A stretch of 64,000 bases of DNA. Origin: Myxococcota bacterium. GTDB taxonomy: Bacteria > Myxococcota_A > UBA9160 > UBA4427. The DNA is taken from the NCBI GenBank assembly GCA_046583095.1, contig JAYGDB010000143.1, forward strand, positions 2,937 through 66,936, written 5' to 3'. The notes under the pieces are model-generated. The model was not told the origin of the DNA. It saw only the letters and a program-made list of their open reading frames with translations, and ran no database searches. Positions 3,782 through 8,172 of this stretch are shown here, in pieces. The number at the start of each line of letters is the position of its first letter. Position 1 is the first letter of the stretch. The translations under genes were made by a program, and so were the position numbers.

Positions 3782-4855
3782 TCAGACGCGTAGACGCGCC
3801 AACGCCCAACGCGCGTGCTCCGCCAGGATGGGATCGTCGCCGTTCGCGTGCCGCTCGACGTGCGGGCGCAACGCGGGGTCCCCTGCGTTGCCCGCCGCCA
3901 CCAGCGCGTTTCGCAGCAGGCCCCGGCGCTTCGCCCGACGTAGCGGACTGCGTCGGGTGGCGTTGCGCCACGCTTGCTCGTCGAGATCCAATACCCACGC
4001 GAGCGAGGGCGGCGCCCACTCGTCGCGAGATTCGAGTCGCGCGCGCAGGCCGAGAGGATCGGGCGGCAATGACGTCGCCCGGCGCAGGTTGCGCTCGTTG
4101 AACGGACACACCTCCTGGCAGACGTCGCAGCCGAAGAGCCACGAGCCCTGGCGCTCCCGCAGCTCGTGAGGAATCGGACCCGGGTCCTCGATGGTCGTGT
4201 ACGAGAGACAGCGTGTCGCGTCCAACACATGGGGGCCGACGAAGGCGTCCGTGGGACAGGCGTCGAGACAGGCCCGGCAGCTACCGCAGTGGTCGACCTC
4301 TCGCTCGTCCGGGGTCATCGGGAGCTGGGTCAACAGCACGCCCAGGAAGAGATATGAGCCCAGGGACGGATGAATCAGCATTGTGTTCTTCCCGATCCAC
4401 CCCAGCCCGGCCTCCGCGGCAAACACGCGCTCCTGCACGGGCCCCGTGTCCACGTAGGTGCGCACCTCGAGCGCCTCACCACACCAGGCCTCCAGAGCGG
4501 ACGCGAGCGCGCGCAGCCGGTCTGCCATCACGTCGTGGTAGTCGTCGCCCTGCGCGTAACGCGCAATGCGGGCAGAAGAGTCCTCTCGCTCGGGCGAGCC
4601 GGCGACGTCGTAGACGAGTCCGACTGCAACCACGCTTCGGGCGCCGGGCAGCACGCGCCGGGGGTCTTCTCGCTCGTCGAGCCGACGCAGAACGTAGTCG
4701 AGCGGTCCGCCGGGGGGGCCCCCGAGCCCCCTGCTCGCCCACTCACGCACGAAGCGCGTCTGCTCCGTCGGCTCGGCCCGGGCCACGCCGACGAGGTCGA
4801 AGCCCACGGCTCGGGCGAGCTGCTTGGCAGCTTCGGCGTTGCGTGTCGGATTCAC
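3782..4855 (-). CDS. queG: tRNA epoxyqueuosine(34) reductase
   Basis: Two ferredoxin-type clusters (CGSCRACLDACP and CDVCQEVCPFN), the HPSLGSYLFLG motif and a HEAT-like C-terminus. Start set at GTG 4855 so that it does not overlap the divergent GH1 gene. Confidence 0.87.
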   Translation of the reverse strand: MNPTRNAEAAKQLARAVGFDLVGVARAEPTEQTRFVREWASRGLGGPPGGPLDYVLRRLDEREDPRRVLPGARSVVAVGLVYDVAGSPEREDSSARIARYAQGDDYHDVMADRLRALASALEAWCGEALEVRTYVDTGPVQERVFAAEAGLGWIGKNTMLIHPSLGSYLFLGVLLTQLPMTPDEREVDHCGSCRACLDACPTDAFVGPHVLDATRCLSYTTIEDPGPIPHELRERQGSWLFGCDVCQEVCPFNERNLRRATSLPPDPLGLRARLESRDEWAPPSLAWVLDLDEQAWRNATRRSPLRRAKRRGLLRNALVAAGNAGDPALRPHVERHANGDDPILAEHARWALARLRV

Positions 4856-4909
4856 GGGCGGGAGGATACCCGCCCCGCTCGCGGGGAGTCGGGTTATGCT
4901 CCGCCCGAC

Positions 4910-6265
4910 ATGGCACGTCTCCGGTTTCCCGAGGGCTTCCACTGGGGAGCCGCCACGGCCTCGTACCAGATCGAAGGGGCCTGGAACGAAGACGGCAAGG
5001 GCGAGTCCATCTGGGACCGCTTCAGCCACACCGAGGGCCGCGTTCGCAACGGCGACACCGGGGATGTCGCGTGCGACTCGTATCACCGCTTCCCCGAAGA
5101 CGTCGCACTACTCGAGGAGATGAACCTCACCAGCTACCGGTTCTCGATCTCGTGGCCCCGGATCCAACCCGACGGGCGCGGCACAACGAATGCCAAGGGC
5201 CTCGACTACTACCGACAGCTGGTGGACGCGCTGCTCGCGGCCGGGATCCGCCCCTTCCCGACGCTGTATCACTGGGATCTGCCGCAGCCACTGGAAGACG
5301 CGGGCGGCTGGACATCCCGAGACACCGCTGGCCGCTTCGCGGATTACGCCGAGATCGTCACTCGCGCGCTCGGCGACCGGGTGTCCGACTGGATGATTTT
5401 CAACGAACCGAGCATCTTCCTGGCGATGGGCTACCTGGCGGGCATTCACGCGCCCGGGCGGCGCGGGCTGGACACCTGGCTCCCCGCGAGCCACATCGTG
5501 AATCTGGCCCAGGGACAAGCCTTCCAGGCCATGCGGGCCAGCGCCGGAGACGCCCGGATCGGGACGGCCCTCGCACTCGCCCCGTGCGAGCCAATGCGCG
5601 ACACCGACGCCGACCGCGACGCCGCCGAGCGCTGGCACCAACTCACGAACACCTGGTGGCTCGATCCGGCGCTCGGGCGGGGCTACCCGGCCGTCCACCC
5701 GGACGGCCTGCCGGTGCGCGCCATGGGGGTCCTTCCGGGAGATCTCGCGCTCTGCCAAGCACCGCTCGACTTCATCGGCGTGAACCTCTACATGCGGTGC
5801 GGCGTCCAAGCCTGCGAGGGCGGGCCGTTCGGTATCGATGCCTTGTCGACTGCCCCAATGGGTCTCGACCAGGGACCGCGCACCCACTGCAACTGGGAGG
5901 TCTGGCCCGACGCCCTCTACGACATGCTGATGCGTCTCACACGAGATTACGACGAACCCGAACTCGAAATCACGGAGAACGGCTGCTCGTATCCCGATGG
6001 ACCTGACGAGAACGGCGTGATCCACGACGACCGGCGGATCGAGTTCTACCAGGGCTACCTCGGGGCGGTCGCGCGGGCGATCGCTGACGGCGCCCGCGTG
6101 TCGGGCTATCACGCCTGGAGCCTGCTCGACAACTTCGAGTGGGCGGAGGGTTACGGCGAGCGATTCGGACTCGCCTGGGTGGACTTCGAAACCGGCGAGC
6201 GGACGCTCAAGGAATCCGGCCGCTTCTTCGCCGAAGTCGCCTCAGCGAACGGGTTCGAGAGCTGA
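4910..6265 (+). CDS. GH1 beta-glucosidase
   Basis: FPEGFHWGAATASYQIEG N-terminus, acid/base FNEP and nucleophile ITENG motifs. 451 aa. Confidence 0.93.
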   Translation: MARLRFPEGFHWGAATASYQIEGAWNEDGKGESIWDRFSHTEGRVRNGDTGDVACDSYHRFPEDVALLEEMNLTSYRFSISWPRIQPDGRGTTNAKGLDYYRQLVDALLAAGIRPFPTLYHWDLPQPLEDAGGWTSRDTAGRFADYAEIVTRALGDRVSDWMIFNEPSIFLAMGYLAGIHAPGRRGLDTWLPASHIVNLAQGQAFQAMRASAGDARIGTALALAPCEPMRDTDADRDAAERWHQLTNTWWLDPALGRGYPAVHPDGLPVRAMGVLPGDLALCQAPLDFIGVNLYMRCGVQACEGGPFGIDALSTAPMGLDQGPRTHCNWEVWPDALYDMLMRLTRDYDEPELEITENGCSYPDGPDENGVIHDDRRIEFYQGYLGAVARAIADGARVSGYHAWSLLDNFEWAEGYGERFGLAWVDFETGERTLKESGRFFAEVASANGFES

Positions 6266-6270
6266 CGAGA

Positions 6271-7290
6271 GTGACCGCGATTGAAGACAAGCTGCTGTTC
6301 CTGATCGGTCCACCGCGCTCGGGCTCGACCTTGCTGACGCGTATGCTCGGCAGCCACAGCGCCATCCATGCGCCCGACGAACCGCATCTCCTCACGCCCC
6401 TGGCCCACCTCGGCTACTACGCAAAGGTCGATACCGCCCCCTACGACCCGATCATCACCCGGCTCGCCATGCAGGAGCTCGTGAACGCATTGCCGGCGGG
6501 TGAGGACGACTACCTCGCCGCCATGCGCTCTCTGACCGACTCGCTCTACGAGCGCCTTCTCACCCCGAGCGGCCGCAGCATGCTGCTCGACAAGACGCCC
6601 GCTTACGCGCTGATCCTCGACTTCGCGGCGAAGCTCTATCCGAACGCACGCTACATCGTGCTGACCCGTCACCCGATGGCCGTCTGGTCTTCCTTCGTCG
6701 AATCGTTCTTCGACGGCGATCACGAGTCGGCTCACCGCCATCAGCCCCTGCTGGAGCGGTACGTCCCGGCGATCGCCCGCTTCCTTCGCGAGCGCCCGGC
6801 TCCCGTCCACCATGTCCACTACGAAGAACTGGTCCAGAGCCCCGAGGCCGAAGTGGAGAAGATCTGCAGCTTCGCGGGGCTTCCCTTCGAGCCCGACATG
6901 ATCGACTACGGGAAGCAGGGCAGCGCGCAGGAGTCGGCCCGCGGCCTCGGCGACCCGATGGCCGTGTCGAGACACAGCCGCCCCACTACGGGGTCCCTCT
7001 CGAAATGGGGCCAGCAGCTGACGGGCAAAGCCGAGATGGTCAGCCAGTGCCAGCACATCCTGGCCAACCTCCTCGACGAAGACCTCGAAAGCTGGGGCTA
7101 CGAGCGACGGGCCATCGCAGCCGAACTGGACGCGATCGACCTCGGGGAAGCCCGGCAGAAGAAGCCCTCCCTGACCCGCTACAGCCTCGAGCGCAAGGTC
7201 GCCACACGATTGCGGAAGAACATCCACCACAACGCCCTCGGACGGCTCGTGCGCAAGCTCCGCTCGGCGTGTGACGTCCTGCTCAGGTGA
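6271..7290 (+). CDS. sulfotransferase family protein (PAPS-dependent type)
   Basis: 5'-PSB-like loop IGPPRSGSTLL near the N-terminus. GTG start 5 nt after the GH1 stop. 339 aa. Confidence 0.83.
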   Translation: MTAIEDKLLFLIGPPRSGSTLLTRMLGSHSAIHAPDEPHLLTPLAHLGYYAKVDTAPYDPIITRLAMQELVNALPAGEDDYLAAMRSLTDSLYERLLTPSGRSMLLDKTPAYALILDFAAKLYPNARYIVLTRHPMAVWSSFVESFFDGDHESAHRHQPLLERYVPAIARFLRERPAPVHHVHYEELVQSPEAEVEKICSFAGLPFEPDMIDYGKQGSAQESARGLGDPMAVSRHSRPTTGSLSKWGQQLTGKAEMVSQCQHILANLLDEDLESWGYERRAIAAELDAIDLGEARQKKPSLTRYSLERKVATRLRKNIHHNALGRLVRKLRSACDVLLR

Positions 7291-7306
7291 TCCGGGACGC
7301 GCGACC

Positions 7307-7315
7307 TGCTATATC
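7307..7315 (+). promoter_or_regulatory. possible extended -10 element (TGcTATATC)
   Basis: The only A/T-rich hexamer in the 33-nt gap. It ends 8 nt before ATG 7324, and no SD is present, which would give a leaderless or near-leaderless small mRNA. Confidence 0.25.
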
Positions 7316-7323
7316 TCTGCACC

Positions 7324-7455
7324 ATGAATGAGAGCCTCCTCGGCCCTGAACTCGCGTCAGAGGACACCTACGAGCCGCCGACGGTCGAGGTCATCTCCCT
7401 CGATTGCGAAATCTCTTCGTATGCGCCGGACGAGGGTGACACTCCCCTCTTCTGA
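7324..7455 (+). CDS. unannotated 43-aa hyperacidic peptide (candidate RiPP/sulfopeptide precursor)
   Basis: Translated by hand: MNESLLGPELASEDTYEPPTVEVISLDCEISSYAPDEGDTPLF. ATG to TGA. 33 of 43 codons end in G/C. 11 acidic residues and 0 K/R/H. It fills the gap between the sulfotransferase and DUF502 genes. Confidence 0.5.
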   Translation: MNESLLGPELASEDTYEPPTVEVISLDCEISSYAPDEGDTPLF

Positions 7456-7479
7456 GCGACGCCCCCGGTCGTCGAGGCA

Positions 7480-8172
7480 ATGCTAAGACGACTCTGGAAG
7501 AGCCTGCTTCGCGTCACACGTCTCTACTTCGTGGCTGGGCTGCTGGCCTTCGCGCCGATCGGCATCACGTTCTGGGCCATCGCCTGGATCATCACACGCC
7601 TCGACAACCTGCTGCTCCCGCAGGTCATCCAGTGGATCTCGCCGGGACTCGACCAACCTCCTGATCTTCCGCCCCTGGTTGGCGCCCTCTTCACCTTTGG
7701 GGTGATCCTGCTGTCGGGTGTGATCGTCCGGCACTTCTTCGGCCAGGAGTTGGTGCGTATCTGGGAGCGGATCCTCTCCCGGGTGCCGGTGGCGCGCACG
7801 ATCTACGGCGGCATCAAGCAACTCTTCGAAGCGGCCATGCAATCCGGGACGACCAGTTACAACCGGGTGGTCCTGATCGAATATCCGAGGCGGGAGGTCT
7901 GGGTGTTGGCCTTCACCACCGGGGCCTCGCGCGGACCCGTCGCGGCGGCCCTGCCCGATCAGGCGCTGATCAACTGCTTCGTGCCCACGACGCCGAATCC
8001 GACCTCCGGCTTCTATCTCGTGATCCCCGAAGAGGACGTCATCGATGTCGACCTCAGCGTAGAGGACGCCTTCAAGGTGATCATGTCGGCGGGCCTGGTG
8101 ACTCCGGGCGCCGAGATCCCGGCCGAGGCCGTCGGGCTCGAGGGCCCGAAGCCCGAGCCGAGTCGGAGTTAG
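7480..8172 (+). CDS. DUF502 domain membrane protein
   Basis: Two N-terminal TM helices followed by a conserved GGIKQLFEA...RVVLIEYPR..VWVLAFTT region typical of DUF502. Confidence 0.78.
   Translation: MLRRLWKSLLRVTRLYFVAGLLAFAPIGITFWAIAWIITRLDNLLLPQVIQWISPGLDQPPDLPPLVGALFTFGVILLSGVIVRHFFGQELVRIWERILSRVPVARTIYGGIKQLFEAAMQSGTTSYNRVVLIEYPRREVWVLAFTTGASRGPVAAALPDQALINCFVPTTPNPTSGFYLVIPEEDVIDVDLSVEDAFKVIMSAGLVTPGAEIPAEAVGLEGPKPEPSRS

Follow-up and report, generated by a model that had tools for sequence, protein, structure and literature searches.

A probable sole pqqA mini-gene, uncoupled from the pqq operon, in an order of uncultured marine Myxococcota

A peptide of 43 residues encoded in the 64,000-nt stretch of Myxococcota DNA analyzed here (the window; contig C59, positions 2937–66936) is, with a probability of about 0.85, the PqqA of its genome, that is, the ribosomally synthesized precursor of PQQ, divergent in sequence and encoded away from the pqq operon. 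This identification was computed from homology, from co-inheritance with pqqBCDE, from the absence of a second pqqA in the genome, and from selection at the protein level. Throughout an order of uncultured marine Myxococcota, the enzyme genes follow the order ileS-pqqB-pqqC/D-pqqE without pqqA in the operon, and pqqA exists solely as a mini-gene of its own, which has a fixed place away from the pqq genes and is flanked by genes for a sulfotransferase and a DUF502 protein. The peptide carries no annotation because it is too divergent for the standard models and lies far from the genes for the PQQ enzymes. Two observations run counter to the identification: lack of linkage to any pqq gene is atypical for a sole pqqA, and the conservation of the C-terminal tail and of Cys28 exceeds what the chemistry of PQQ by itself demands. 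The original prediction had wavered between an orphan or diverged pqqA and a new class of RiPP precursor borrowing the same recognition logic. The former is supported (the enzymes are encoded in the genome, the peptide co-occurs with them, the E-x3-Y pair is conserved, and shuffled sequences are outscored), and the latter is not needed to account for the data.

The peptide gene and its homology to PqqA

The gene starts with ATG at position 7324 and ends with a stop codon at 7453–7455 (Table 1); codon 16 (TAC, Tyr) occupies 7369–7371, that for Glu29 (GAA) 7408–7410, and that for Tyr33 (TAT) 7420–7422. Homologues were found by six-frame search in 32 of 61 related genomes, and a pattern scan over one genome per species yielded 105 loci, nearly all labeled as Myxococcota or Deltaproteobacteria MAGs (the few odd labels resemble mislabeled bins). 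The peptide family spans 12 families of the order; its copies in databases are nameless or termed “hypothetical protein” and lack a Pfam domain. When aligned, its members vary in their N-terminal extension and then share the pattern [YWF]-x-x-P-x-[FV]-E-V-I-S-L-[DAC]-C-E-I-[ST]-[SA]-Y-A-P-D-(x2-5)-P-L-F, in which P19, L26, C28, E29, Y33, P35, and P41 are invariant; in the tail, the same holds, or nearly so, for A34, P35, P41, L42, and F43. At position 16, 28 of 30 homologues have Y, W, or F (14 of them Trp or Phe), and 16 of the 30 have W, F, H, or S in place of Tyr. The pair formed by E29 and Y33 (E-x3-Y), the conservation of which had been proposed as a check, is present in 30/30 homologues, with codons that vary synonymously. 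Across the homologues, variability is highest at the third codon position (0.29, vs 0.18 and 0.15 for the other two). Synonymous change at invariant residues and the variability of the third position therefore indicate selection at the level of the protein: the peptide is encoded by a real, conserved, protein-coding gene.

Table 1. Coordinates and supporting evidence for the peptide gene, its surroundings in the window (contig C59), and the pqq genes of the same genome (contig C21).
Feature	Position	Strand	Evidence or remark
Sulfotransfer_3 family sulfotransferase (neighbor only)	6271–7290	+	PF13469, E = 9e-36
TGcTATATC, extended -10-like motif	7307–7315	+	ends 8 nt before the ATG; conservation and rarity
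PqqA-like gene, 43 codons plus stop, encoding MNESLLGPELASEDTYEPPTVEVISLDCEISSYAPDEGDTPLF	7324–7455	+	listed ORF, homologues, codon usage
PqqA core, Y16-x-x-P19 through C28-E29-I-S-S-Y33	7369–7422	+	invariant residues; profile–profile match
Conserved acidic C-terminal tail, A-P-D-(x2-5)-P-L-F	7423–7452	+	alignment of homologues
DUF502 membrane protein (neighbor only)	7480–8172	+	PF04367, E = 4.5e-31
pqqB (TIGR02108)	C21		311.8 bits (cut-off 245)
pqqC (TIGR02111), in the same open frame as the PqqD domain	C21		287 bits (cut-off 240)
pqqE (TIGR02109)	C21		477.8 bits (cut-off 381)

Relative to the aromatic residue at position 16 (0), the peptide presents Pro at +3, [V/F] at +5, a small residue at +11, Glu at +13, and Tyr at +17, and the same spacing is found in Myxococcota PqqA peptides recovered with TIGR02107, for example WTKPTFCDLRLGFEVTAYVYVR (38.1 bits). 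The prediction that residues 16–33 are arranged as in PqqA was thus correct, including its coordinates, and so was the remark that Asp stands in place of the usual Gly two residues before the Glu; across the family, this position is Asp, Ala, or Cys.

When the peptide was compared with Pfam and NCBIfam (hmmscan), no match was obtained at E ≤ 10, TIGR02107 and PF08042 included. TIGR02107 is a model of 21 positions with a cut-off of 20 bits, which is a detection threshold and not a biological property. Five of 28 members of the family match it at E ≤ 10. Scores of other family members were 11.6–20.9 bits, and one member (from G402, 20.9 bits) exceeds the cut-off. In five relatives, the top full-length match of TIGR02107 below threshold is a member of the peptide family (11.6–15.3 bits). 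An independent PqqA HMM was made from 14 operon-linked Myxococcota PqqAs, none of which belongs to the family of the peptide. It scored the peptide at 10.9 bits, vs a maximum of 8.6 bits over 2000 shuffles, and members of the family at 6.3–30.4 bits. Scoring with PqqA models, which the original prediction had put forward as a check, supports that prediction in that the peptide outscores its shuffles on the independent HMM, with the caveat that neither curated model matches it. The PqqA spacing in the peptide is more than chance.

A profile of the family was also run against 1.84 billion representative proteins and returned 152 matches, 75 of them at E ≤ 1e-10. The strong matches are the peptide family itself, and at the weak end, with E values from 1e-6 to 1e-3, are peptides of the type WTTPxFEEISLNCEI[NS]SYAxAEL; 41 of the 43 weakest matches fit the PqqA model TIGR02107 (best E 1e-8). 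Aligned with hhalign against the TIGR02107-positive set, the family matched over Y16–P35 with a probability of 98.7% and E = 3e-16; this second set had been retrieved with the family profile but was identified as PqqA independently. Among the profile matches, two long repeat proteins (P0130 and P0133) were discarded as unrelated repeats, that is, false positives. By sequence comparison, the peptide family is homologous to PqqA and represents a subfamily largely missed by the curated models.

Co-inheritance of the peptide with the PQQ enzymes

The pqq genes of the same genome lie on contig C21 in the order ileS-pqqB-pqqC/D-pqqE, and the window lies on C59. The original prediction had stated that no pqq gene is near the peptide and had asked whether the genome encodes PqqB, PqqC, PqqD, and PqqE; the statement holds, and pqqB, pqqC/D, and pqqE are all present on C21 (Table 1). 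PqqC and PqqD are fused in one open frame (C21:9893–10840), as in many relatives. The PqqD part scores 32.5 bits, which is below the NCBIfam cut-off of 46 but over that of Pfam, and is the one PF05402 match in the whole genome. The gap of ∼100 nt between ileS and pqqB contains no peptide ORF, and a search of the genome with TIGR02107 gave no credible match elsewhere. Clients of PQQ are encoded as well: one protein of the PQQ alcohol dehydrogenase family scores 664 bits against TIGR03075 (cut-off 480), and the genome also has four paralogues with lower scores and a protein of the GSDH family. Just past the end of the window, ∼58 kb from the peptide gene and on the same contig, a further quinoprotein-like open frame of the PQQ dehydrogenase family is found (C59:68619–70409, 684 aa, 172 bits to TIGR03075).

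Of the 61 related genomes, which are MAGs, so that absences are uncertain, 30 contain the peptide together with PqqC and 26 contain neither; two genomes have the peptide only and three PqqC only. This co-occurrence, which the prediction had proposed to examine and which was indeed found, corresponds to a Fisher p of ∼1e-11, a statistic that ignores phylogeny. The two genomes with the peptide only are 71% and 73% complete. Two of the three with PqqC only (G009 and G010) possess their own pqqA in the operon and a different, higher-scoring PqqC; these in-operon PqqAs follow the pattern W[RQ]KP.V.E.ACG[CL]EINCYAT and score 18.5 and 23.4 bits. Presence and absence of the peptide are mixed within families f1, f4, f9, and f12 of the order, and operon and peptide were therefore lost together several times. 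In complete relatives, the distance between the peptide gene and the pqq operon is 0.18–2.1 Mb. When 12 relatives carrying the peptide were scanned with a relaxed PqqA motif, no PqqA-like ORF was encountered within 6 kb of pqqC/D-E (12 kb in all), whereas the same scan detected in-operon pqqA in two genomes of a sister order (G407 and G100; M[DN]W[TQ]TPAFEEINMSAEIGAYQGDEDG...PPF).

Two kinds of PqqC occur in the order, which score about 270–295 and about 330–354 bits against TIGR02111. They were seen among the relatives G009, G010, G032, G016, G025, G030, G034, and G051, the last of which has both. The in-operon pqqA of G009 and G010 is located between pqqC, here of the high-scoring kind, and pqqD. 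In genus g14, the high-scoring PqqC is encoded on other contigs than pqqD, and the unlinked peptide is retained. The existence of two kinds of PqqC suggests replacement or lateral acquisition of pqq genes.

Locus, expression signals, and alternative readings

An extended -10-like motif ends 8 nt before the start codon of the peptide gene (Table 1). TGCTATA precedes the peptide gene in 20 of 28 loci across the order and is positioned 6–8 nt before the start in 16 of these; in two further loci, a second in-frame ATG is at a distance of 6–8 nt, and in another two, the motif lies 24 nt upstream and is followed by GGGAGG. In the 3.86-Mb genome (66% G+C), the heptamer occurs only eight times on both strands together. 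No Shine–Dalgarno sequence was found before the ATG of the peptide gene, and a scan with a simple sigma-70 pattern did not call a promoter at 7307–7315, where a -35 element is missing and the sixth base is C. Behind the gene, no terminator was found, as the fold is no better than that of shuffled sequences (z = −0.99) and a pattern scan gave none. RNA was represented by a single 151-nt contig at 7317–7467 and another within the DUF502 gene at 7524–7674, both from one metatranscriptome and together too little to define a transcript or to fix its start; the former begins upstream of the predicted leaderless start, and DNA carry-over or read-through may explain it. From the conservation and the rarity of TGCTATA, the sole ground of the promoter argument, we infer that the peptide gene probably has an extended -10 promoter to itself and that its mRNA is leaderless or nearly so. 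The other seven TGCTATA sites in the genome (C62:167(-), C76:8924(+), C80:58409(-), C102:52356(-), C104:19357(+), C165:40262(-), and C170:6822(+)) may mark further strong or leaderless transcripts; that on C80 belongs to a near-perfect promoter, TTGACG-N17-TGCTATAAT, and that on C102 reads TGCTATATC, with GTG following 6 nt later.

The genes on either side are co-directional with the peptide gene, with 33 nt between the stop codon of the sulfotransferase gene and the peptide start and 24 nt between the peptide stop and the start of the DUF502 gene, and about 18 of 21 loci retain this arrangement. Where the peptide is present, 190–390 nt separate the sulfotransferase gene from the DUF502 gene, vs 0–180 nt where it is not; as the neighbors abut in its absence, the mini-gene was gained or lost as a unit. 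GH1 β-glucosidase, Sulfotransfer_3 sulfotransferase, and DUF502 genes follow each other on one strand (window positions 4925–8172; loci L031–L050 and L151–L180), and many families of the order keep this trio, whether or not the peptide gene lies between its second and third members. Taken at their greatest length, the ORFs of the β-glucosidase (4370–6265, + strand) and of a QueG-like 4Fe-4S protein (3782–5086, - strand) share several hundred bases; since residue 186 of its ORF is where the GH1 domain begins, the true starts of the overlapping ORFs are further in.

The tight packing of the three genes, together with the family of the neighboring enzyme and the acidic context of both Tyr16 and Tyr33, could be taken to indicate a sulfopeptide of the RaxX/PSY type, the adjacent sulfotransferase O-sulfating Tyr16 and/or Tyr33 and the DUF502 protein aiding export. 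This is very unlikely, and the idea was rejected on the grounds that peptide and enzyme are not co-inherited and that, in genomes without the peptide, the two flanking genes adjoin. An orthologue of the sulfotransferase (56–75% identity) is present irrespective of whether the peptide is (25 of 32 genomes with and 20 of 29 without it; p = 0.56, absences in these MAGs being uncertain). Seven genomes have the peptide and lack the enzyme, and in G002, a member of the same genus, the sulfotransferase orthologue is split over three frames (C10:551224–552113; likely a pseudogene, or else an assembly error) beside an intact peptide gene. Sulfotransferase and DUF502 genes stay adjacent in genomes without the peptide, so the pair exists independently of it. 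Furthermore, nearly half of the homologues have Trp or Phe at position 16, which therefore cannot be a conserved sulfation site, and the best NCBIfam match of the enzyme is the carbohydrate sulfotransferase NoeE, far under the cut-off. Tyr33 is invariant, as its role in PqqA would explain. What the peptide has in common with RaxX/RaxST—a small, acidic, Tyr-containing peptide encoded beside a sulfotransferase gene—is positional only; here, the two genes are inherited without regard to each other, and other residues often stand in the place of Tyr16. Even less probable is a precursor of a lasso peptide or another RRE-dependent RiPP which shares with PqqA nothing but the YxxP leader motif. Such a motif is present, but the single PF05402 match of the genome is the PqqD domain of the pqq operon, the detectable relatives of the family outside the order are PqqAs, no plausible core start has a Thr at -2, and the block that is conserved is E-x3-Y. 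That the frame is a chance ORF or a non-coding spacer, as its small size, its lack of annotation, and the missing Shine–Dalgarno sequence might suggest, has a vanishingly low probability: conservation across the 12 families, invariant amino acids with varying codons, and the strong profile matches refute it.

Two further readings take the peptide to derive from PqqA. In one, a PqqA-derived precursor is recognized by PqqD and PqqE, and the end product is not, or not only, PQQ, with Cys28 or the tail undergoing a second modification or serving another role. C28, A34, P35, and P41-L-F equal E29 and Y33 in conservation, and the gene lies outside the operon with what seems to be its own promoter. 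However, the Cys before the Glu is also invariant in 43 peptides of the “LNCEI[NS]SYA” type, 41 of which fit TIGR02107, and recurs in the PqqA that G009 encodes within its operon; an acidic ...PPF tail is found on the in-operon PqqAs of the sister order, and PF05402 reveals no RRE besides PqqD in the genome. As the Cys and the tail are found in accepted or in-operon PqqAs, neither trait is tied to relocation, and we consider this reading improbable. Rated a shade lower still is a relocated precursor with a second role beyond the supply of PQQ, such as an additional modification, the export of a product derived from the peptide, or a regulatory link between PQQ supply and the neighboring genes; it is entertained because the invariant Cys28, the APD...PLF tail, and the fixed position between the sulfotransferase and DUF502 genes could reflect such a role.

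Proposed maturation and comparison with known PqqAs

If the peptide is the PqqA of this genome, its chemistry is expected to be ordinary and to lead to standard PQQ. In the maturation that we infer by analogy, the PqqD domain, which in this genome is joined to PqqC, would bind the aromatic-x-x-Pro segment (Y16–P19), and the radical-SAM/SPASM enzyme PqqE would link the γ-carbon of Glu29 to the ring of Tyr33, which are presumed to be the cross-linked residues that become PQQ. Peptidases would then trim the peptide at both ends, taking away the variable extension at the N terminus and the acidic APD...PLF tail; the latter is not part of PQQ and is presumably lost during maturation. PqqB and PqqC would complete the cofactor, to be loaded into the quinoprotein dehydrogenases of the genome.

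The identification closes a gap in annotation. Across the order, the pqqBCDE operons of these uncultured, mostly marine Myxococcota look as if they lacked a precursor, and PQQ synthesis would be called incomplete because a precursor of 40–60 aa is missed by the curated models and lies elsewhere; an alignment of the peptide family could serve to widen the PqqA models. It also provides a clean natural case in which the only pqqA stands apart from the genes for the enzymes, probably with its own leaderless promoter, which fits the idea that a precursor consumed stoichiometrically is regulated apart from the enzymes.

Like PqqA as described by TIGR02107 and PF08042, the peptide is short and ribosomally encoded, has an aromatic-x-x-P segment with Glu at +13 and Tyr at +17, and co-occurs with pqqB, C, D, and E. 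Unlike it, members of this family are longer (40–60 aa), with a variable N-terminal extension of 15–30 residues, a conserved acidic APD...PLF tail, and Asp, Ala, or Cys for the usual Gly two residues before the Glu; moreover, the peptide itself scores under both curated models, and its gene, albeit the sole pqqA of the genome, is unlinked to the operon. A full-text search found no literature on pqqA in Myxococcota, and orphan copies of pqqA are documented in the literature for methylotrophs only: pqqA2 and pqqA3 of Methylorubrum extorquens AM1 are orphan or extra copies (PMC11317620), and Methylophilaceae have 3–12 copies of pqqA (PMC4109929). Those genes resemble the present one in being located away from pqqBCDE, and the methylotroph copies are expressed independently of the enzyme genes. 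They are, however, additional to a copy in the operon, whereas the unlinked gene is here the sole copy, occupies the same sulfotransferase/DUF502 locus order-wide, and is lost together with the operon. The closest counterparts are the in-operon PqqAs of other Myxococcota (G407/G100 and G009/G010). All of them share the spacing of the core, those of G407 and G100 also end in an acidic tail (...YQGDEDGSDYPPF / ...PPF), and that of G009 likewise has Cys before the Glu and a long N-terminal extension. What sets them apart from the peptide is that they are encoded inside pqq operons and reach or approach the cut-off of TIGR02107 (18.5–23.4 bits).
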